Shown in pieces: positions 2 through 62,551 of a stretch of DNA of 64,000 nucleotides. Position 1 is the first letter of the stretch. Every line of letters starts with the position of its first letter. The position numbers and the translations under genes were made by a program. The notes under the pieces were generated by a model. That model saw nothing but the letters and a program-made list of their open reading frames with translations. It was not told the DNA's origin and did no database searches. Source of the DNA: Oligoflexia bacterium (GTDB lineage: Bacteria; Bdellovibrionota_C; UBA2361; SZUA-149; DAOLCO01); the NCBI GenBank assembly GCA_035327825.1, contig DAOLCO010000013.1, positions 8,033 through 72,032 of the forward strand, given 5' to 3'.

Positions 2-1240
2 GGAGGTCATACAAATACTGTTAGCGTTCCTGATGAGGCAGGTGTTATTTGGGAAGTAGATACCGGTTTTATTGTTCTTAATGACTGCAATTATCCAATT
101 CTACATGAATTGTTTGAGCGCTGGAATGTAAGGGTCCGCTGGAGTGATATGTCGTTTAGTTTTTTTGATCCGGTAGATCCATTTTATTATGCAGGTACTA
201 CTCTTTTTGGTCTGTTTTCTCAGGTTGAAAATGCATTAAGACCGTCTTTCTATCGTTTTTTGTTTGAAATTCTCAGATTCTGCAGGGACGCTTCTTTATA
301 TTTGTCTGTATCTTCTTCTCCTTCCAGAAGCACGCTATTTCCTAGTCCGGGAGTAATGACAGAGCTAAGCCTTGGAGAATTTCTCGAGCGTGGTGGGTAT
401 TCGATTGATATGATTGAATGCTATTTGTTACCTATGGGATCAGCTATCTGGTCAGTGCCCACTGAAACAATCAGGGATTTTCCAGCCGAATCATTTTTCC
501 GTTTCTTCCGTAATCATGGACTTCTTGGATTGTTGAAGAGACCCAGGTGGCAAACAGTTTGTGGCGGAAGTAGTGCGTACCTTTCTACTTTCAGCAGTCT
601 ATTTAAAGGTGAAGTTCTTCTTGGTTCTCAAGTAGAAAATGTAAGAAGGGATTTATCGAGGAGTGAAGGGGGGGTTGCAATTTTTTATCGAGATAATAAA
701 TCTGATGATCTTAAGGAAAAGAAATTTGATGAAGTTGTGTTTGCCTGTCACGCAGATCAGGCACTCAATATGATTGATTCACCAACTGTTCTTGAAAAAG
801 ATCTTCTTGGTGTCTGGAAATATCAGATGAATGAAGCAATTCTTCATACTGACAGCAGTATTCTTCCTCCATGCAAGCATGCCTGGGCTTCGTGGAATTA
901 CTATGGAAGGTACCGAAATTCTGGCTTAAATGATGGCGGATTATCGAATTCCGCTACTCTTACTTATTATATGAATCTTCTTCAGGGACTGGATAGCAAG
1001 ACTGATTTTCTTGTAACTCTTAATGATGATAGGCATATTCTTAAAGACAAAATTCTGAAAAGAATATCCTATTCGCATCCTGTTTACACAGCTGAGGCAG
1101 TTTATTCCCAGACCAGACTTCACGAGTTGCAGGGTAAGAATCATTCTTATTTTGCCGGAAGTTATTTTGGAAATGGTTTTCATGAGGACGGTGCCCGATC
1201 TGGTGCTCAAGTGGCTTTATTTAAGGGCGTTGCGTTGTGA
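2..1240 (+). CDS. FAD/NAD-binding amine-oxidase-family oxidoreductase (COG2907-like), 5'-truncated by the window edge
   Basis: The frame is open from nt 2 (GGHTNTVSVPDEAGVIWEVDTGFIVLND...) and continuous with ORF 110..1240, so the true start lies upstream of the window. The C-terminal GSYFGNGFHEDGARSG signature and the position directly upstream of DUF1365/CFA-synthase genes are typical of this family. The stop overlaps the next start (GTGA). Confidence 0.7.
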   Translation, partial: GGHTNTVSVPDEAGVIWEVDTGFIVLNDCNYPILHELFERWNVRVRWSDMSFSFFDPVDPFYYAGTTLFGLFSQVENALRPSFYRFLFEILRFCRDASLYLSVSSSPSRSTLFPSPGVMTELSLGEFLERGGYSIDMIECYLLPMGSAIWSVPTETIRDFPAESFFRFFRNHGLLGLLKRPRWQTVCGGSSAYLSTFSSLFKGEVLLGSQVENVRRDLSRSEGGVAIFYRDNKSDDLKEKKFDEVVFACHADQALNMIDSPTVLEKDLLGVWKYQMNEAILHTDSSILPPCKHAWASWNYYGRYRNSGLNDGGLSNSATLTYYMNLLQGLDSKTDFLVTLNDDRHILKDKILKRISYSHPVYTAEAVYSQTRLHELQGKNHSYFAGSYFGNGFHEDGARSGAQVALFKGVAL

Positions 1241-3252
1241 GCGAGGTAGTCTCTTCAAGTCTTTTTTTTGGAGAAGTTTTTCATCAAAGGAATACCCCGA
1301 AAGTCCATTCTTTTACCTATCCGCTTTTTACTTTAAGGATTTCTATTGATGAACTTCCAGATTTGTCAAGAAAAGGATTTGGTGTATTTTCATATAATGG
1401 TTTTGGAATTTTTTCTGTTTTTGATCGGGATTATTTGTGTTCTGAAGAAGGCACTATCAGGAAGAGACTGGAAAAAATTCTGATAAATCAGGGTATTAAC
1501 GAAGTCCCGGATCAAATTGATCTTGTAACTAATCCTCGTTTTTTGGGTTATGTTTTTAATCCTGTTAGTTTTTTTCTTTGCTATCGTCAGAACATGGATT
1601 TGTATGCTGTTGTGGCTGAGGTTCATAATACCTTTGGGGAAAAGCATTTATACCTGCTTCCAGAGAGTGATTTTGAGCGAGTTAAAGTAAATGGTACTTC
1701 CCGATTAAAGGTTAAAGGTAACCTTAAAAAAGTATTTCATGTATCACCGTTTTTTGATCGGGAAGGTTTTTATCGTTTTGTTATTGAGTCTGATGTTAAC
1801 TTAATGGATTTAAGGGTATCTCTTGTAAAAGATGGAGATACGGTTTTTACTTCCCGTTTGCATGGTACAAAGCAAGTATCATGGAGTAATATTGCCTTAC
1901 TTAAGGCATTTGCTCGTTATCCGGGTTCTATATTGTTAACAATGACAAGAATTATTTATCAGGCGTATTTATTAAAATTCAGGAGAGGATTAAAGGTGTT
2001 TAGCAAACCTATCGCGGCTCATCCGATGACTATTCAAAGAACCGGGCCAGGTATTTTTCAAAGACTTTCTTTTGCTTTCATTTCTTCATTTCTTAATGGT
2101 GTCAAACGTGGGCAAATTGTGCTTCGTCATAATGATGGAAATTACTTTGAGAAAAGTGGAGAGAAGGAAGGATCGAGAGCTGATATATTAATAAGGAACT
2201 ATGATATTTTCACAAGGTCATTAATTTCAGGTGATATTGGATTCGGTGAATCTTATGTGGAGAAAGACTGGGATAGCGAAGATCTTGTGAGTATTTTGCG
2301 TTTTTTTTGTGAGAACATGGATAATATGGATGATCGAAGTATCCTTTTATCCAGGATCGGTCGTGTCTTTAACACGATAACTCATTTTGCGAGAAGAAAT
2401 ACGATTACAAACAGCAAGGAGAATATTTCCAGACATTATGATTTAAGCAATGAGCTTTTTGGCAGATTTCTTGATAAAAATATGCTTTACTCTTCTGCTG
2501 TTTTTGATTCTGGTCAGGAGAGCCTGGAAGATGCCCAAATAAAAAAGATGAACATGTTAATAAATTATGCCGATCTTAAAAGCTCTGACCATTTGCTTGA
2601 AATTGGTTGTGGTTGGGGTGCTCTTGCAATTCATGCTGCGAAAACTGTTGGATGTCGAGTTACTGGCATTACTCTTTCAAGCGAGCAAAAAGCCTGGGCT
2701 GATAGAAGAATCAGGGAAGAAGGTCTTGAGGATCAGGTTTCTGTGAAACTTCTTGATTACAGGCAAATTGAAGGCAATTTTGACAAAATTATTTCAGTTG
2801 AAATGATTGAGGCAGTTGGCCATGCCTTTTTAGATTCATTTTTCTCCCGGTCAGGTAGTCTTTTAAAGAATAATGGCAGGCTTGTGCTTCAGGTAATTAC
2901 AGTGCCCGAATCTCGCTATGATGCTTACAGAAAAGGCTGTGACTGGATACAAAAATATATTTTCCCTGGAGGGCATTGTCCATCGGTATCAGCTCTTGTT
3001 GAGTCGGCAAGCAAGGCCTCCGGTTTTTCCCTTCAGTCTTCGACTAATATCGGTTTGCACTATGCAACAACTCTTTCTCGTTGGCGGACTCGCTTTAATG
3101 AGAATTTTGACGAGATCAGGACTTTCGGGTTTGATGAACGTTTCAAGAGAATGTGGAATTATTATCTTGCATATTGCGAAGCAGGTTTTTCATCCAGTGC
3201 AATTCATGCGCATCATATGGTATTTGAGAGGAGTAAATCAGGTAATGTGTAA
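1237..3252 (+). CDS. DUF1365 domain fused to a cyclopropane-fatty-acyl-phospholipid-synthase-family SAM methyltransferase (671 aa)
   Basis: The N-terminal ~250 aa match the DUF1365 pattern (GEVFHQRNTPKVHSFTYPLF..., VFNPVSFF, VAEVHNTFGEKHLY). The C-terminal ~400 aa are CFA-synthase-like (HYDLSNELF, SAM motif LLEIGCGWGALAIHAAK, MIEAVGH, ...YLAYCEAGF). GTG start overlapping the upstream stop. Confidence 0.8.
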   Translation: MSEVVSSSLFFGEVFHQRNTPKVHSFTYPLFTLRISIDELPDLSRKGFGVFSYNGFGIFSVFDRDYLCSEEGTIRKRLEKILINQGINEVPDQIDLVTNPRFLGYVFNPVSFFLCYRQNMDLYAVVAEVHNTFGEKHLYLLPESDFERVKVNGTSRLKVKGNLKKVFHVSPFFDREGFYRFVIESDVNLMDLRVSLVKDGDTVFTSRLHGTKQVSWSNIALLKAFARYPGSILLTMTRIIYQAYLLKFRRGLKVFSKPIAAHPMTIQRTGPGIFQRLSFAFISSFLNGVKRGQIVLRHNDGNYFEKSGEKEGSRADILIRNYDIFTRSLISGDIGFGESYVEKDWDSEDLVSILRFFCENMDNMDDRSILLSRIGRVFNTITHFARRNTITNSKENISRHYDLSNELFGRFLDKNMLYSSAVFDSGQESLEDAQIKKMNMLINYADLKSSDHLLEIGCGWGALAIHAAKTVGCRVTGITLSSEQKAWADRRIREEGLEDQVSVKLLDYRQIEGNFDKIISVEMIEAVGHAFLDSFFSRSGSLLKNNGRLVLQVITVPESRYDAYRKGCDWIQKYIFPGGHCPSVSALVESASKASGFSLQSSTNIGLHYATTLSRWRTRFNENFDEIRTFGFDERFKRMWNYYLAYCEAGFSSSAIHAHHMVFERSKSGNV

Positions 3253-3796
3253 GAGATTTTTGTTTGTACTCCTGTCTTTTGTGTTGACTTGTTCGCTGTC
3301 TCTTTCTTTTGCTTCTGAGGAAGATTTAAGTTTTACGCCATCTCTGGAGCATCTTGATCTTCGTGGTAAGGCCCGTTTTAAGTGGTTTATTTTTGAAGTT
3401 TTTAATGCGAGCTTTTATACCGAACATAAGGTAGATTCCTTTGAAGAGATATTTGACCGGGCTGGTGATGTTTTTCTTGAGCTGACCTATTCCCGGGCGA
3501 TTCCTGCGGAGGATTTTATATCCAGTTCGGAAAAAAGTTTAAATCAAAATAAGAACCTTAACCGGAATGCCATAGAGGATCACTTGAATAGGCTTTATAG
3601 TGTATATGAAGACGTAGAGGCAGGTGAAAAGTACGCTCTTTTTTATTTTGCAAGCACGGAAAGTACCTGTTTATTTAAAAACGGGGTAAAAAAAGTTTGT
3701 CTTGGGGGAAAAGATTTTGCAAAAGCCTATTTTGGCATATGGTTATCAAGATATAGTGTGGATGATAAATTTTCACGAAAATTGCTTGGTTCATGA
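3245..3796 (+). CDS. Secreted chalcone-isomerase-like (CHI-like) family protein
   Basis: I chose the internal ATG at 3245, which overlaps the upstream stop by 8 nt. It gives an N-terminal signal peptide (MCKRFLFVLLSFVLTCSLSLSFA). Motifs RGKARFKWFIFEVFNASFY and AYFGIWLS...KLLG resemble bacterial CHI-like proteins that accompany CFA-synthase operons. The 2918 start in the ORF track lies inside the upstream gene in another frame. Confidence 0.55.
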   Translation: MCKRFLFVLLSFVLTCSLSLSFASEEDLSFTPSLEHLDLRGKARFKWFIFEVFNASFYTEHKVDSFEEIFDRAGDVFLELTYSRAIPAEDFISSSEKSLNQNKNLNRNAIEDHLNRLYSVYEDVEAGEKYALFYFASTESTCLFKNGVKKVCLGGKDFAKAYFGIWLSRYSVDDKFSRKLLGS

Positions 3797-3846
3797 GTCT
3801 TTTTGGGTTCTGATCTTAATTGGTTGGTTTAACAAGAAAGGTGATA

Positions 3847-4488
3847 ATGTCTGGAGTTGCTAAAGAAAATACTGTTCAATCTGGCACCCAATTTGACACT
3901 CAATCTGATACGGAGGAATTTAATCGTTTGAGTATGAACCCTGAAGAGTGGCTTCAGGAATATGGCGACTATTTGTATCGATATGCTGTTTTGCAATTAA
4001 AAGATACCGGGGCGGCAGAGGATGCAGTTCAGGATGCTTTGATGAGCGCTTATAGGGCACGAGAAAGTTTTCAGGGAAAATCAACCCAGAAAACCTGGCT
4101 TATGACTATTCTAAGGAATAAAGTTATCGATATAGCCAGAAAGCGTAAGCGTGACATGCTGGTAATGACAGAGTCTATTGAAGATGATCCGCTGGTTCGC
4201 GCAAGTTTTAGTGGGGCTGGAATCTGGAGTAAATGGTTAAATTCCTGGGGTAGTAGCCCAGAGGATTTGCTTTCGCATCGTGATTTTCTGGAGCAGGTAA
4301 ATTCGTGCCTTGAAAAACTTCCTGATAATTTAAGACAGGTTTTTGTTCTTAGGAACGTCGATGATTTAAGTACGGAAGAAATATGTGAACGTCTTGATAT
4401 AAATGCGAACAACGTATGGGTTATTTTGTACCGTGCCCGATTGAGGCTAAGGGAATGTCTTGAATTAAACTGGTTTAAGGTGAAATAA
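3847..4488 (+). CDS. ECF-type RNA polymerase sigma-70 family factor
   Basis: Region 2 (YGDYLYRYAVLQLKDTGAAEDAVQDALMSAY) and region 4 (LSTEEICERLDINANNVWVILYRARLRLRECL) are both present. ATG at 3847 is preceded by AAGGTGA; the TTG at 3820 is an alternative start. Confidence 0.85.
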   Translation: MSGVAKENTVQSGTQFDTQSDTEEFNRLSMNPEEWLQEYGDYLYRYAVLQLKDTGAAEDAVQDALMSAYRARESFQGKSTQKTWLMTILRNKVIDIARKRKRDMLVMTESIEDDPLVRASFSGAGIWSKWLNSWGSSPEDLLSHRDFLEQVNSCLEKLPDNLRQVFVLRNVDDLSTEEICERLDINANNVWVILYRARLRLRECLELNWFKVK

Positions 4489-4808
4489 TGGAAGCTCGCG
4501 ATTCTGAAAAGTTTGAAATGGATGCCGGGAAAAAGCTTTTGGCACCATTTTCTTGCAAAGAGTACACTAAGTTGTGTTCTTTTTCCGGTGACAGGCCTTT
4601 AGGTTTTTGGGAAAAGATATGCCACAGGTTTCACCATTTGTGTTGTTTTACTTGCAGAAGATTTTCAAACCAGATTGGTTTTATAAATATGGCATGCCGC
4701 CATGTGATTGACGGTAACTCTTGTTCGGCACTTCCGGATGAGGCGAGGGCAAGAATAGAAAAAAAACTGAAGGAAAACCTCGCTCAGGATCCAAACCTTA
4801 ATGAATAA
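4488..4808 (+). CDS. Short zinc-finger (ZAS-type, H-x3-C-x2-C) putative anti-sigma factor
   Basis: Start overlaps the sigma-factor stop (TAATG). The motif HHLCCFTC fits H-x3-C-x2-C. 106 aa, with no obvious TM segment or cupin domain. Confidence 0.6.
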   Translation: MEARDSEKFEMDAGKKLLAPFSCKEYTKLCSFSGDRPLGFWEKICHRFHHLCCFTCRRFSNQIGFINMACRHVIDGNSCSALPDEARARIEKKLKENLAQDPNLNE

Positions 4809-4983
4809 TACCTCTAATTCTTTAAGAAGCTTGTAGCTAAAACTAGAATGGTCATTCTAATACGTTGATTTTATTCAATTTCATCCTTTACTTAATTCTG
4901 TCCCCAATGATAGGATACATCAATAGTTCTATTGATTCTTTAACTAGTTAATATCTGGAAGATGTGTCGTCCTGCTTATCCGG

Positions 4984-5004
4984 AATCCCCAGTTGGGGGT
5001 TTTT
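4984..5004 (+). terminator. Weak candidate intrinsic terminator
   Basis: AATCCCC-AGTT-GGGGGTT hairpin followed by TTT, about 175 nt downstream of the anti-sigma stop. The stem is short. Confidence 0.3.
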
Positions 5005-5220
5005 AGTGGCTAATCAGGGGTTGAGTCGGGGCTCAGTCATTACCATTTTTTGCTGCAAATGATTGAGCTTCTGCATGTTTATGGTTTTATAGAATTTCCC
5101 CATTATCTTATCTCCTTAATTTAATCCCTGATTTGGGAATCTTTGCTCTGTTCGGGGTTACTCTTTAGTCTCTTTATTTGAAGATGCTAGAGGGTGACCC
5201 TGAATAGAATTTCACTTATC

Positions 5221-5646
5221 TGGGTTACTCGTATGCCCGAAGGAAACGTTGACTGGATCTTTTCAGGACTCGCATTGGAGCAGTCTGACAGTCGACGGAG
5301 GGACGGAGGGCGCAAGTAGGGAGTAAAATATGAACGGTAGCGGTGGTTATGTACCTGCTGCAGAAGCAGCCTGTGGGGATTTTTACGAAGAGCCGAGGGT
5401 CGTGTCTTCCCCCGTAAAAAAAGAGTCTCGCTTTGGTCGTCCAGGAGGAACGTTTGTTCCTTTTGAGGACTGGGACAGTGGGCAAAAGCACATTCCCACG
5501 CCATGCGAAGACAAAGGCGATTGATTGATTCCCACCTAGAGACGAGGGGCTTCATGGTAACTTGGGCGAAACACCATGGGCCCCTTTGTCTCCCCCCTGC
5601 TCCCATGTGAATCGAGAGAGTACCTCTTCACATGGGAGTCTTTTTT
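5221..5646 (+). ncRNA. Unassigned structured RNA candidate (GC-enriched core ending in a strong terminator)
   Basis: About 53% G+C by hand count over 5221-5640, against visibly AT-rich flanks.
- Only short R/W/C-rich ORFs on either strand.
- Stable local hairpins at 5357-5370, 5380-5420, 5439-5470 and 5546-5584.
- A 12-bp terminator stem plus T-run at the 3' end fixes the plus strand.
- The 5' boundary is uncertain. Confidence 0.45.
5600..5646 (+). terminator. Rho-independent terminator
   Basis: CTCCCATGTGAA (5600-5611) pairs perfectly with TTCACATGGGAG (5627-5638), followed by TCTTTTTT. Confidence 0.8.
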
Positions 5647-5904
5647 GGGGGAGGGTCTTTTTTTGTGGGTACGGGTAAGGGATTTATTTCAGGTTATTTA
5701 AGTTTCATGCAGAAGCTTAATCATTTCCCATATTTTGCATTTCACAGATTGTGATTAGTCGATGTTAAAAAACGCAGGCTTTATCATCGATTAATTAGAA
5801 TGATCAATCCATTAAAATAAATGGATTAGGCGCAATCAAATTGCTAGAGTAATCTATCGTGGTTTAAGGTTTTTCAATCATCCCGTTTAAGGAAAGGGAC
5901 AAAA

Positions 5905-6189
5905 ATGTCATTTCTTCCAAATGTTCTTCAGGAGGAAAAAGAGTTCTGGCTGGAGGCATTATGCGACGGGTTTCGAAGCTATGTGCTTTGGGTAAAAAAA
6001 GTTTGCCCGGATCTTGCCAGACCAGAAAGCAGAAGGCTGACCCGAGTTGTAATGGCTGTTGATAGCAACGGCTTTGATTTGAATCAACGGGGGAATGAAG
6101 TGCTTTTGCTTATTCTTTTTAGCGAGCAAGTTCGTTTTCAGGAAATCAGAGATAGGGCTTTTGAAATGTTGACTGGAGAATGGCCCTAG
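5905..6189 (+). CDS. Hypothetical protein (94 aa)
   Basis: ATG preceded by AAGGAAAGGGA. No recognisable motif. Convergent with rpsP. Confidence 0.35.
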   Translation: MSFLPNVLQEEKEFWLEALCDGFRSYVLWVKKVCPDLARPESRRLTRVVMAVDSNGFDLNQRGNEVLLLILFSEQVRFQEIRDRAFEMLTGEWP

Positions 6190-8673: not shown

Positions 8674-9112
8674 TACCTGTAATGCTCCAAGCTACGAAAA
8701 TATCAGTGTCCGTTCCAGTTAATCATTAGTTTCTATGGAGAAGGTAGCGAACCCTCCCTAGAGTATTATCGACAAGATATAACTTTGGGTAAAGTATTTA
8801 TTTATATGAATTAATCGTCCCTTTTGTTCAGAGGTGGAGGGAATTAGGGGTGATTGAAGACAGTAGGTTTGGGGGGGTCTTTTAAGCCAAGAGTATTATG
8901 AAACCTAGTTTTTTCGAGTTTGCTTTCCTTCGCTAAGACTTTTGATATCCGTTAAGATTCTGATATGGAGATCAAATTAGACAAGGGGCAGATATTCAAT
9001 TCCGATACATTTAGTGTGCTAATTTCGGCTGGTATTGAGAATGGTGTGTTACTTGCCTTCCTGAAAAAAAATAGGGTTAAATTAAATTTGCTTTAATACG
9101 CAATCATTAAAG

Positions 9113-41120: not shown

Positions 41121-41304
41121 CTAGCCCGCATTATTCATGATCCACCTACTGCGAGAGGCGATTGCTTAATTTTTCTGGCACTTTGCACCTTTTTTCGACC
41201 TCAATGTGCCTCGGCACACTGTCGACCGAAAAAAAGCACAAAGCACCAGCAAAATCAAACACTCACCTCTCTCGTGACTGAGTCTCATGAATAACGCGGG
41301 CTAG
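41121..41304 (+). mobile_element. MITE-like element A, copy 2 (184 bp, 20-bp terminal inverted repeats)
   Basis: CTAGCCCGCATTATTCATGA (41121-41140) versus the reverse complement of TCATGAATAACGCGGGCTAG (41285-41304) matches at 19 of 20 positions. It sits between two co-directional genes of the minus-strand sugar operon. Confidence 0.8.
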
Positions 41305-60470: not shown

Positions 60471-60600
60471 TTCTAAGGGGTCAGGGTTAAGAGGTTTTTA
60501 AATTTTCTTGATCCTCACCCCGTCAGTTAAGTTTAAATTGAAATTCACATGTAATTTTAAATTTAAGGAAGGTTTCGTCTGAGCTCGTAAACCTTGCCTT

Positions 60601-60635
60601 AAAAGAAAGAGCACTGGTGCTCTTTCTTTTTTTTT
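60601..60635. terminator. Bidirectional intrinsic terminator between convergent genes
   Basis: AAAA-GAAAGAGCAC-TG-GTGCTCTTTC-TTTTTTTTT: a 10-bp stem flanked by an A-run and a T-run. Confidence 0.75.
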
Positions 60636-60646
60636 AAACATGCCTT

Positions 60647-61159
60647 TTAAGCTCTGACCCGGGCACAAGCCGCAAGCCAGAGTTTTTCGAGCTTTTCCCG
60701 GGCTCCTGGCTCTCCGAGATATGCTCGGACCCAAAGTGGGTCGGGCATTTTCCCAAGGAGGTCCTTCTCCATCAGCCCCTCGATAACTCGAAGGAGGGGC
60801 TTGGCGAGTTCCGTTCCAGCTTCCTTGCTGGAAAGGTAAACGCCATCACTCAGGAAAAAGCGTCTTGCTTTTTCCTGAGCTGAGAAGTCCTGCCCTGGAT
60901 CTCCGATCCAGAGAGCAGGAACAGCTCCTCCCTTCCTTGAAAGGAACCTGTGCGCTTCATGCGCACTTGATTTGACCTGCACCAAACGGTGCAGGCCGGG
61001 GACGTTGACGAAAACGTCAACGTCCCCCTCAAGCCCCTTTCTTCCATACCCTTCGGGGAGGGGCATCCCCATGTCCTCAAATGCGGCATCGGCCGTGATG
61101 CCGCCTAACTGAAGAGCTACAAACTCTTCGAGTTCGTAGCTCTTTCGAGTTTCAAGCAT
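60647..61159 (-). CDS. Mrr-cat-like PD-(D/E)xK restriction-endonuclease-fold protein (170 aa), compositionally foreign
   Basis: EEFVALQLGG...EGDVDVFVNVPGLHRLVQVKSS matches the E...D-x-D...(Q/E)-x-K pattern of Mrr-type nuclease cores. About 60% G+C in two hand-counted 60-nt lines. Confidence 0.5.
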   Translation of the reverse strand: MLETRKSYELEEFVALQLGGITADAAFEDMGMPLPEGYGRKGLEGDVDVFVNVPGLHRLVQVKSSAHEAHRFLSRKGGAVPALWIGDPGQDFSAQEKARRFFLSDGVYLSSKEAGTELAKPLLRVIEGLMEKDLLGKMPDPLWVRAYLGEPGAREKLEKLWLAACARVRA

Positions 61160-61206
61160 GATAATCCTCCTTCAGTCTTTTAACGACTGAAAAAAAAGAA
61201 AAAAAG

Positions 61207-61264
61207 AAAAACTGTAACGGCCAAAAGCGTGTAATCATTTCATGCCTTTGGCCGTTACAGTTTT
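61207..61264. terminator. 18-bp perfect hairpin (bidirectional terminator-like)
   Basis: AAAACTGTAACGGCCAAA (61207-61224) pairs with TTTGGCCGTTACAGTTTT (61247-61264). The loop is 22 nt. Confidence 0.5.
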
Positions 61265-61712
61265 TCAATATTCAGTTGAGAAATTTTACTGAGGAATATG
61301 AGTAAGGGTGAAGAAGAAGCTTAGGGAGTCAGGAATTTAAAAACCTTATTTTACAAAAAACCTTTACTGTCAGACGAAACCAGGGAGTAGGCGAACTCCT
61401 TGGTTTCGTTTCAAAAATACGTCTAACCTTTAAAAGCTTGAAAAGAACAAAACCCATAAGGTATTAATATTAAGTGCCTTAAAGATTTATGCACTAATGT
61501 TATGGCAGAAATATTATAAATTATGATTTTGATGCTTATTTATGAAATGTCGGATTAAGTTTTGGGGAAGTAAGGGAAGGAAGGAAATCGGAAGGATCAC
61601 TCTTGCAGTTAGAGCCTATTAATTCAAACTAGGGCAAATAACTACTTATAAATAATAGCATATTGCTGTACGTTAAGTGCAGTTAAATAATGGCGTGCAA
61701 ATTTTAAGTGCT

Positions 61713-62551
61713 ATGAATAGACTAGTTAACCTCCCTATTCTACACTCTTTTTTCCTTTTTGGTGCTTGAGGCACTGGTAAGACTTTGACTTTAAAAAAGC
61801 TTCTTCCGGAGGGTGGTGGTATTTACATCGATCTACTGTTGCCGGAAGATTACGAGAGGTTTTCTAAGCAACCATCGTATCTGTCTAAAACCGTCCAGAG
61901 TTTACCTGAAAAAGGCGAGTTCTGGATTGTTATTGACGAAGTTCAAAAAGTATCTGCTCTTCTTGATATGGTTCATTTGGAAATTGAGGCATACAAAAGA
62001 TCCCAGATGGGGTTACTAAAGAGCGACCTCCTGAGCGAAAGATTTACTTTTCATTAACTGGATCTAGCGCTCGAAAACTAAAACGGGGTAATGCCAATTT
62101 ACTTGCCGGACGAGCATTACTAATGAATCTTTATCCATTGACTCACCAGGAGCTTGGAGATGATTTTGACTTGCATGAAGTTCTGAGGTGGGGAAGCCTT
62201 CCAGGGATTATAACTGAAAAGGAACTTGATATTAGAAATCAGATGCTAATATCATATATTCACACCTATCTCAAAGAAGAAATTCTGGAAGAGCAACTGG
62301 CACGGGAAGCACCTCCTTTTAGAAGATTTCTTGAGAGTGCAGCTCAGACTAATGGAGAGATAATAAATTTTTCAGCAATAGGAAGAGATGTCAACCTAAG
62401 TTCAAATACCGTACAAAGCTATTATCAGATACTTGAAGATACCCTTCTTGGATACTATGTCCTTCCATACCACACTTCTATAAGAAAACGTCAAAGAAAA
62501 GGCCCGAAGATGTACCTATTTGACTGTGGCAAGATGCTATTGCAGCGCTAG
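61713..62551 (+). pseudogene. Decayed AAA+ ATPase (AAA_14 + DUF4143 family) gene
   Basis: Paralogous to 62662..63825.
- In-frame TGA at 61767-61769 inside the Walker A motif (FLFGA*GTGKT).
- A frameshift between about 61985 and 62040; the sequence then reads IYFSLTGSSARKLKRGNANLLAGRA in another frame.
- The last ~130 aa are missing. Confidence 0.8.

Follow-up and report, generated by a model that had tools for sequence, protein, structure and literature searches.

Large structured non-coding RNAs such as OLE, GOLLD, ROOL and raiA form GC-rich intergenic islands in AT-rich genomes, and all of them are represented in Rfam. IS200, at ~700 bp among the minimal insertion sequences, has hairpins close to its ends, no terminal inverted repeats and a Y1 transposase of ~150 aa. 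Phage 'morons' are self-contained cassettes carrying small orphan genes, and invertons are invertible promoter segments, exemplified by fimS and the Bacteroides switches. Mobile insertion cassettes (MICs) and MITEs are non-autonomous derivatives of insertion sequences and are among the IS-related objects of the ISsaga paper (PMC3129680), an example of a MIC being the qnrS2 MIC (PMC5444012).

Within the 64-kb stretch of DNA that was analysed, referred to here as the window, a candidate unit of 676 bp (5054–5729) looks like a transposon in its geometry, with 24-nt terminal repeats and a 9-bp duplication. The reading we favour, though tentatively, is that this unit is an inserted, MIC/MITE-like cassette carrying a small orphan gene. 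It shares with MICs and MITEs a pair of IS-like terminal inverted repeats of 21–24 nt with a short direct repeat abutting them, an intergenic position and the lack of an internal transposase, and with MICs also a passenger gene that has its own expression signals. It differs from them in being seen as a single copy, in having imperfect end tips and no known cognate IS, and in its length, which exceeds that of a typical MITE and falls short of that of described MICs; its cargo is a very small orphan ORF in a highly structured RNA rather than a recognisable gene. The element is similar to IS200 in length, in its structured leader and in a stable left-end hairpin that could block incoming transcription, but it has terminal inverted repeats and no transposase domain in any frame. 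The compact arrangement, in which a leader is followed by a small ORF and a strong terminator, all of deviant G+C and placed between unrelated genes, recalls a moron, although the element has no prophage context or PHROG match and is bounded by inverted and direct repeats.

The two ends and their flanks comprise the following features.

5045–5053, no strand assigned: left copy of the direct repeat, ATTTTTTGC, a candidate 9-bp target-site duplication
5054–5077, no strand assigned: left terminal inverted repeat, TGCAAATGATTGAGCTTCTGCATG, with its near-perfect 20/21 part at 5057–5077
5706–5729, no strand assigned: right terminal inverted repeat, CATGCAGAAGCTTAATCATTTCCC, from the inverted-repeat search and shuffles
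5730–5738, no strand assigned: right copy of the direct repeat, ATATTTTGC, from simulations and alignment
5031–5043, no strand assigned: extra partial copy of the right-end repeat, GCTCAGTCATTAC, outside the left boundary

The inverted termini at 5057–5077 and 5706–5726 were recovered as the earlier note had described them, complementary at 20 of 21 positions with one G opposite T. They form the longest inverted repeat with at most one mismatch among all 1.1-kb stretches of the window, and dinucleotide shuffles of the interval (n = 200) produced inverted repeats of 15 nt or less. Given the 9-bp direct repeat, the ends can be set in a 24-nt register in which 21 of 24 positions match with zero indels, the outermost 3 nt matching poorly. 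The direct repeat abutting the inverted termini had previously been overlooked. Its copies agree at 8 of 9 positions in the 9-bp register and at 10 of 11 as an 11-mer starting at 5043 (CCATTTTTTGC), with P = 0.002–0.01 in simulations under three null models. Extended by alignment, the repeat reaches a score of 26, with 5031–5053 and 5715–5738 aligned at 19 of 24 positions with one gap (P = 0.003–0.011). Being T-rich and carrying one mismatch, it could be a chance occurrence at the ~1% level, and this together with the imperfect end tips speaks against the favoured cassette. So does the extra partial right end in the left flank, which pairs with the left terminal repeat in a hairpin at 5028–5071 (14 pairs, three of them G-T). 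This partial copy is not predicted by simple target duplication and could point to site-specific recombination.

Site-specific recombination is also the basis of a reading in which the 628 bp enclosed by the 21-nt inverted repeats are turned around by a recombinase. The orientation of the terminator would then switch a block on read-through from the sigma/anti-sigma operon into the neighbouring 94-codon ORF (orf94). We consider both the flipping and its proposed effect very unlikely. The likeness to an inverton lies in inverted repeats of ~20 nt around a segment of <750 bp that adjoins a gene it could control; repeat length and segment size fall within the range typical of invertons in PhaseFinder-type surveys, and the terminator works in one direction only. 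However, the element is 100% identical and in one orientation in all three independent assemblies, and recombinase families were absent by Pfam among the called genes within ~8–13 kb on either side. Inside the element there is no convincing sigma-70 promoter, the sole scan match (4822–4849) lying upstream of it; what the segment contains is not a promoter but a complete transcription unit with its terminator. Neither flanking direct repeats nor a foreign base composition would be expected of an inverton.

The core at 5221–5646 is GC-enriched, as had been noticed before, with 52.6% G+C against 38.2% in the window, and only two GC islands of this kind occur in the 64 kb. Orphan DNA fills the entire 1.47 kb from the anti-sigma gene to rpsP, and the locus is a synteny breakpoint or rearrangement junction. 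In relatives found through the ECF sigma factor (L007 and L008), other genes directly follow the sigma/anti-sigma block, and in relatives found through Ffh (L011–L014), other genes directly follow the ffh-rpsP block. The closest relatives, which show 77–81% identity in Ffh and 67–70% in the sigma factor, have different neighbours, and none of them has an orthologous intergenic region that can be aligned. Searches of L007, L008 and L011–L014 by nhmmer and tblastn gave no trace of the element, and orf94 was likewise absent. Searches for homologues of this neighbouring ORF, viral contigs included, found none, and it is itself an orphan; its AlphaFold2 model is of low confidence.

A junction of this kind might also hold an inert relic made up of leftover foreign or rearranged DNA, whose hairpins, ORF and repeats are now functionless. 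That the entire anti-sigma-to-rpsP interval is orphan, orf94 included, that it sits at a rearrangement junction and that zero conservation is demonstrable all agree with such a relic. We nevertheless judge it unlikely, because neither strand-specific G-U pairs nor a coherent layout of leader hairpins, exposed SD-AUG, host-like codon usage and double terminator is expected of random decay.

The earlier note had proposed a search for further copies as a means of telling a mobile element from an RNA. The element proved to be single-copy in the 72 kb of the genome that can be read (the 64-kb window and the 72-kb contig), and no homologue was found in any collection searched. Copies of the termini or the core were absent from phage, plasmid, E. 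coli, viral-contig and metagenome-contig collections, and phages, plasmids and E. coli genomes contained no DNA similarity to the element. The terminal 21-mer had no match in viral contigs. The terminal 18-mer had 60 matches in metagenome contigs, all single, non-extending and attributable to chance; the source organism is absent from this collection and its locus was not recovered either, so the 18-mer scan is uninformative on copies inside this genome. Neither further copies nor an autonomous IS sharing these ends turned up in the 64-kb window, the 72-kb contig, the relatives or the collections of phage, plasmid, E. coli, viral and metagenome sequences. Pfam detected no transposase or remnant of one in the ORFs or in six frames, and on the empty six-frame scan a decayed transposase or other pseudogene was rejected. 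The previous interpretation of the termini as MITE-like DNA ends has gained an abutting direct repeat, a foreign composition and a synteny break, but it has gained neither a second copy in 72 kb nor a cognate transposase in the collections searched. Both absences count against the favoured cassette, as does its size, 676 bp being large for a MITE.

The predicted structures on the plus strand are as follows.

5147–5208, plus strand: long hairpin with 23 contiguous pairs and 5 more (28 bp), pair probabilities at least 0.72
5222–5297, plus strand: two leader hairpins with which the GC-rich core opens, namely 5222–5238 and a 9-bp stem 5247–5255/5289–5297
5539–5592, plus strand: 3' hairpin (GGGGC..CATGGT/ACCATG..GCCCC) with helices 5545–5550/5580–5585 and 5553–5558/5573–5578
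5589–5664, plus strand: nested double intrinsic terminator, 5580–5670 folding at -39.6 kcal/mol

The strongest structure of the interval, the hairpin at 5147–5208, had gone unmentioned in the earlier note. All of the helices that had been listed there (5357–5370, 5380–5420, 5439–5470 and 5546–5584) are present, and most are well supported by the partition function. The leader hairpins have pair probabilities of 0.88 (5222–5238) and 0.97 (5247–5255/5289–5297). Because the 28-bp hairpin carries seven G-U pairs, and zero A-C mismatches, the plus strand is taken to be the RNA strand. Wobble pairs are biased to the plus strand, with G-U against A-C at 19:3 (expected G-U fraction 0.65, p = 0.027). 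The 150-nt windows within 5100–5299 gave plus-strand z-scores of -6.7 and -7.8, the latter at 5150–5299, compared with -2.2 on the minus strand, and the whole core folded with z = -2.8.

Such folding could belong to a new, lineage-specific structured non-coding RNA of ~430–500 nt, a plus-strand transcript with its 3' end at the double terminator, in which the 64-codon ORF (orf64) arose by chance and the repeats are incidental or mark its arrival. As with OLE, GOLLD, ROOL and raiA, the element is a GC-rich, hairpin-dense and terminator-ended island in an AT-rich genome. Its G+C is equally high outside the ORF (0.53 at 5221–5329 and 0.525 at 5525–5646), which fits a structured RNA. The whole-core and local z-scores, the G-U bias and the strong terminator favour this explanation, as do the orphan status and predicted disorder of orf64. 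We regard it as doubtful, though, on several grounds. The element differs from the large RNAs in having no Rfam match, even at E <= 10, and zero homologues, leaving it with no covariation support, and in containing an ORF with coding signatures. Windows over the ORF body (5200–5449) are not unusually stable, with plus-strand z of ~0 to +0.8. Further, an SD-AUG coincides exactly with the longest stretch left unpaired, and the codon bias and periodicity of orf64 are missing from its flanks.

The earlier conclusion that no known RNA family is present agrees with a scan at the Rfam 15 gathering thresholds, in which only two tRNAs elsewhere in the window were reported. A permissive scan of 4700–6000 (E <= 10) gave chance miRNA and snoRNA matches far below threshold, the best at 23 bits against a threshold of 55–94 bits. 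Rfam 15 scans were negative for RNase P, tmRNA, SRP, 6S, riboswitches, group I and II introns, OLE, GOLLD and ROOL, and ARAGORN found no tmRNA.

The folded transcript probably encodes a 64-residue orphan peptide, orf64, which is defined by two features.

5330–5524, plus strand: orf64, 64 codons, called as a gene in three assemblies, peptide sequence MNGSGGYVPAAEAACGDFYEEPR...
5319–5323, plus strand: Shine-Dalgarno-like GGGAG, separated from the ATG by 6 nt, read from the sequence

The interval had been described as ORF-less and without credible coding potential, its ORFs being short and R/W/C-rich. This part of the structured-RNA interpretation did not hold, whereas its structural part gained strand-specific local folding and a wobble bias. 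The product of orf64 is not R/W/C-rich, and the ORF is preceded by GGGAG-N6-ATG. Its codon score, 0.232 bits/codon compared with 0.224 +/- 0.09 for real genes, is reached by 3.3% of shadow ORFs and by 0.17% of composition-matched (core-like) random ORFs. Twenty-nine of its 64 codons have G at position 1. It shows 3-base periodicity at p = 0.027, compared with 0.96 and 0.75 for the equally GC-rich flanks and 0.54 and 0.17 for antisense ORFs. Allowing for the ~8 ORFs inspected, the statistics of orf64 are suggestive only. The SD-AUG of orf64 is unpaired in both MFE and centroid folds and makes up the RNA's longest unpaired and most accessible stretch, 5320–5335 having a mean P(unpaired) of 0.6–0.7 when the 5' end lies at or beyond 5100. 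Because of this accessible SD-AUG and the coding signatures, we rate a small-protein mRNA with structured UTRs no less probable for the transcript than a non-coding RNA pure and simple.

The orf64 product is acidic, rich in Gly and Pro and has no hydrophobic segment. AlphaFold2 modelled it with a pLDDT of 54.7 and no secondary structure, which suggests that the peptide is probably disordered. Among 5.8 billion proteins it matched only itself; no homologue was found in viral contigs, and no domain or structure matched it in Pfam, PHROG, PADLOC or the PDB. The missing homologues, the unstructured model and a G+C enrichment that is just as strong beyond the ORF all count against orf64 being a gene. 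For a 139-aa antisense ORF there was no relative among 1.84 billion representative proteins (HMMER) and, when it was expressed as degenerate patterns, no match in metagenome and viral contigs.

Downstream of orf64, the 12-bp perfect terminator stem (5600–5638) and T-run reported previously are present and belong to a nested pair. The inner terminator consists of the 12-bp stem at 5599–5639 followed by U6 at 5641–5646, and the outer of a C-run/G-run helix (5589–5598/5647–5655) followed by U7 at 5658–5664. The pair lies ~75 nt downstream of orf64 and is one-directional, with its T-runs on the plus strand. In a global fold of 5020–5740 the terminal arms pair with a probability of at least 0.87, and their sole mismatch is a G-U pair on the plus strand. 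The termini might be a 21-bp closing helix in a transcript spanning 5057–5726, acting as a processing stalk or in hok-like 5'-3' pairing; in keeping with this, a 5' end at 5057 sequesters the SD (P(unpaired) 0.13). Such a helix is highly improbable in our assessment. The two intrinsic terminators precede the right arm by 60 and 42 nt, so that the objection raised in the earlier note, that the terminator lies inside the termini, is upheld with a second, nested terminator. An explanation at the RNA level is also missing for the flanking direct repeat, and orf64 is unlike a hydrophobic toxin peptide.

Under the favoured reading as an inserted cassette, the element would be of a non-autonomous cut-and-paste type, mobilised in trans by a transposase not in view, and its repeats would have arisen by transposition. 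The cargo would be one plus-strand transcription unit. This unit would begin with an AT-rich upstream part bearing the 28-bp G-U-rich hairpin and continue into a structured leader rich in G+C. Next would come the Shine-Dalgarno and the ATG, both exposed, and then the 64-codon ORF for a small acidic, probably disordered peptide. The 3' hairpin and the nested double terminator would halt transcription before the right repeat. From the sequence we infer that the RNA is made and orf64 translated, and any function of the peptide is likewise presumed. It is decidedly improbable that the cassette is a mobile gene whose product, a structured RNA of ~0.45–0.5 kb, belongs to a new class, possibly with a dual function through the 64-aa peptide, and that it moves between genomes through a transposase that acts on its 24-nt ends. 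If so, a transposon would be carrying a non-coding RNA as its cargo, and no protein partner would be encoded next to it.

If the favoured reading is true, the locus shows cleanly and on a small scale how a cassette the size of a gene has been inserted in a bacterial chromosome, its inverted ends and target duplication occurring together with terminators of its own and an orphan micro-gene. The cassette would mark the join of two conserved gene blocks in an uncultured Bdellovibrionota lineage and add to the catalogues of non-autonomous elements outside model phyla. Annotation would gain a 64-aa gene and an insertion scar that are otherwise missed or mislabelled. No long-standing question is opened; with one copy in one organism, the locus would gain in interest only if its cargo proved to be a structured RNA with a function or further copies came to light.

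Several other classes of element were considered and rejected. By eye, the long hairpin is without the R-box motifs of an attC site, and the Xer-like arms of a dif or pdif module are absent. For IS1 and IS200, similarity and transposase are both absent. A retron was set aside with no RT domain and no ORF >139 aa in or beside the element. A type I toxin-antitoxin system of the hok/sok kind was rejected on the absence of a hydrophobic segment in orf64; the other plus-strand ORFs upstream of the terminator also contain no hydrophobic, membrane-like segment by eye. Two further repeats near the element were discounted: a rough calculation places a 22-nt direct repeat at 4841–4862 and 5793–5814 (17 of 22 positions) at chance level, and the end repeat's fourth, partial copy, at 5768–5787, is non-significant (P = 0.075). 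The end-repeat sequence AAATGATTRAGCTTCTGCATG can serve as a query for further copies, and an empty or excised site, if one exists, would read ...ACCATTTTTTGC/ATTTCACAG...

The 21-nt inverted repeats described in an earlier note as the termini of an ORF-less element, either a structured RNA or MITE-like, are real and non-random. The two copies (5057–5077 and 5706–5726) are complementary at 20 of 21 positions and form the longest inverted repeat in the window with one mismatch or fewer, and inverted repeats in 200 shuffles of the interval did not exceed 15 nt. A direct repeat is present directly outside them, CCATTTTTTGC (5043–5053) and CCATATTTTGC (5728–5738). When the two 20-nt outer flanks were compared under three null models, an equally good match arose in 0.2–1% of trials. 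If the last 9 nt of this repeat are taken as a target-site duplication, the element would span 5054–5729 (676 bp). The ends of this unit, TGCAAATGATTGAGCTTCTGCATG on the left and GGGAAATGATTAAGCTTCTGCATG on the right (reverse-complemented), align at 21 of 24 positions without an indel, and the 9-nt duplication adjoins both exactly. With one gap allowed, the left flank also matches the right end at 19 of 24 positions (5031–5053 and 5715–5738; P = 0.003–0.011), and 5031–5043 pairs with the left repeat as a local hairpin. Simple duplication does not predict this 19/24 extension, and site-specific integration is therefore an alternative DNA-level route. An inverton is very improbable, since a direct repeat flanks the ends, only one orientation is seen and no recombinase lies nearby.

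The window comes from an uncultured bacterium of the Bdellovibrionota, and the identical locus (100% identity, orientation unchanged) occurs in a 72-kb ENA contig and two Logan assemblies. The closest loci are from MAGs labelled Bdellovibrionota or ‘Proteobacteria’, and the Ffh homologues bear the same labels. Upstream of the element is a conserved block (1237–4808) of SDR, amine oxidase, a DUF1365-CMAS (cyclopropane-fatty-acid synthase) fusion, a chalcone-isomerase-like gene, an ECF sigma factor and a 106-aa protein. It has a counterpart in L007 and L008, the relatives’ loci reached via the sigma factor, and the final protein ranges from 92 to 106 aa across the window and these loci. The H-x3-C-x2-C motif of the 106-aa protein recurs in both loci and suggests a zinc-type anti-sigma factor. 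In gene content the cluster is similar to singlet-oxygen or RpoE-ChrR-type regulons, except that the anti-sigma-like protein here is without a C-terminal domain. Downstream come orf94, an orphan of 94 codons, and then convergent rpsP and ffh. Beyond the repeats and orf64 (a 64-codon ORF within the element), features between the anti-sigma gene and rpsP include:

4822–4862: sigma-70-like promoter match (TTAAGA-16-TAGAAT), the sole match in the interval
5147–5208, plus strand: long hairpin of 23 contiguous pairs and 5 more, with seven G-U pairs and no A-C mismatches
to 5646 and to 5664, plus strand: double terminator, a 12-bp stem with U6 inside a C-run/G-run helix with U7
5905–6189, plus strand: orf94, just beyond the element, whose codon score (0.203) is gene-like and whose SD-like motif is AAGGAAAGGGA

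Both blocks are conserved in relatives but are non-adjacent there. Other genes directly follow the sigma/anti-sigma pair in L007 and L008, unrelated genes follow rpsP in the four loci reached via Ffh (L011–L014), and neither the element nor orf94 was detected in any of the six by nhmmer or tblastn. Because the blocks lie apart and the element is absent in relatives, the 1.47 kb from the anti-sigma gene to rpsP represents lineage-specific DNA at a rearrangement junction, of which orf94 is also a part. No homologue of orf94 was found among 5.8 billion proteins, and its AlphaFold2 model is all-helical with low confidence. The promoter match overlaps a 7+7 palindrome (TAGAATG-GT-CATTCTA) right after the anti-sigma stop codon, and may be a promoter under operator control, directed at the element.

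The inverted ends of IS-like length, the abutting 9-bp duplication, the foreign composition, the synteny break and the absence in relatives point to an insertion footprint, which would have been left by a cut-and-paste element without its own transposase. Among known categories, the element comes closest to mobile insertion cassettes and MITEs (PMC3129680, PMC5444012). The MITE-like alternative of the earlier note gains support from the direct repeat. The searches returned no relative and no further copy. None was present in the window or the other 8 kb of the 72-kb contig, the relatives’ loci searched lacked the element, and phage, plasmid and E. coli collections gave no match. Viral contigs held no relative or copy, and nor did metagenome contigs, in a search that did not return the source locus itself and was powerless for same-genome copies. 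A six-frame Pfam scan was empty, and a 139-aa antisense ORF had no HMMER match among 1.84 billion representatives. Only one copy of the element is seen, in one uncultured organism, and nothing ties it to a known system.

The core of the element (5221–5646) is 52.6% G+C in a window of 38.2%, with one further comparable island in the 64 kb. Every helix named previously is present, including the perfect 12-bp terminator stem, and the most striking structure, the hairpin at 5147–5208, had been overlooked. On the plus strand, 150-nt windows over this hairpin gave folding z-scores of -6.7 and -7.8, compared with only -2.2 on the minus strand. Scoring that treated G-T and A-C mismatches equally gave stems across 5000–5740 with 19 G-U and 3 A-C, compared to a composition-expected G-U fraction of 0.65 (p = 0.027). 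The G-U bias, strand-specific folding and plus-strand T-runs assign the RNA to the plus strand. Given the double terminator, transcription is expected to end 42–60 nt short of the right repeat. As the double terminator sits within the repeats, the termini are most unlikely to be an RNA closing helix, a reading we weigh equally with the inverton. A by-eye comparison had found no known RNA family; Rfam 15 likewise gave zero matches at gathering thresholds and sub-threshold chance matches only at E ≤ 10, and ARAGORN found no tmRNA.

The description of the element as ORF-less was incorrect, as a credible 64-aa ORF, orf64 (5330–5524), is predicted as a gene in 3 of 3 assemblies. GGGAG lies 6 nt upstream of its ATG, and no unpaired stretch of the fold is longer than its start region (P(unpaired) 0.6–0.7 with the 5’ end at 5100 or further on). 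Its host-trained codon score of 0.232 bits/codon equals the real-gene mean (0.224 ± 0.09). Among shadow ORFs just 3.3% score as high, and among random sequences of core composition without stops just 0.17%. Codon position 1 is G in 29 of 64 codons, and codons ending in T or A predominate. Three-base periodicity (p = 0.027) was absent from the equally GC-rich flanks (p = 0.96 and 0.75) and from antisense ORFs (p = 0.54 and 0.17). The cargo would then be a coherent plus-strand unit consisting of a hairpin-rich leader, an exposed SD-AUG, orf64 with host-like codons, a 3’ hairpin and the double terminator. A non-autonomous insertion cassette with this small-gene cargo is our favoured, if tentative, reading. 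Next in weight is a non-coding RNA cargo, somewhat unlikely but consistent with a G+C enrichment outside orf64 that matches that inside, and with the orphan status of orf64, which has no homologue among 5.8 billion proteins, no match in Pfam, PHROG, PADLOC or PDB, and a structureless AlphaFold2 model (pLDDT 55). An inert relic is less likely again, ranking ahead of the inverton and closing helix. Of the earlier structured-RNA idea, a structured plus-strand transcript very probably exists, although it is more likely a micro-protein mRNA than a pure non-coding RNA.

Further features noted elsewhere in the window include:

60647–61159, minus strand: 170-aa ORF with an AGGAGGA Shine-Dalgarno and strong 3-base periodicity
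41130–41300, minus strand: large composite palindrome between two minus-strand genes
8862–8924, plus strand: 17-pair hairpin with G-U in 12 of 17 pairs

The 170-aa ORF, which had no match in Pfam, PHROG, PADLOC or PDB, lies in the only other GC-rich island (60600–61270; 0.52–0.56 G+C) between hairpin terminators, including a 20–23 bp bidirectional one at 61206–61266. This island, too, is probably a small foreign gene cassette. A 10-mer, TAATCATTTC, common to the hairpin loop and the right terminal repeat of the element may be shared by chance. Adjoining the island, AAA_14 (61785–62057) and DUF4143 (62123–62551) fragments in separate short plus-strand ORFs look like a broken AAA-ATPase gene. 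The palindrome, the second-longest inverted repeat of the window, contains a 26-bp hairpin (41175–41249, 7 G-U pairs) nested in further inverted repeats (tagcccgcgttattcatga / tcatgaataatgcgggcta). It had no Rfam match; possible identities are an intergenic RNA with structure, a processing site and a REP-like element. The hairpin at 8862–8924 is strongly plus-strand-specific because 12 of its pairs are G-U.
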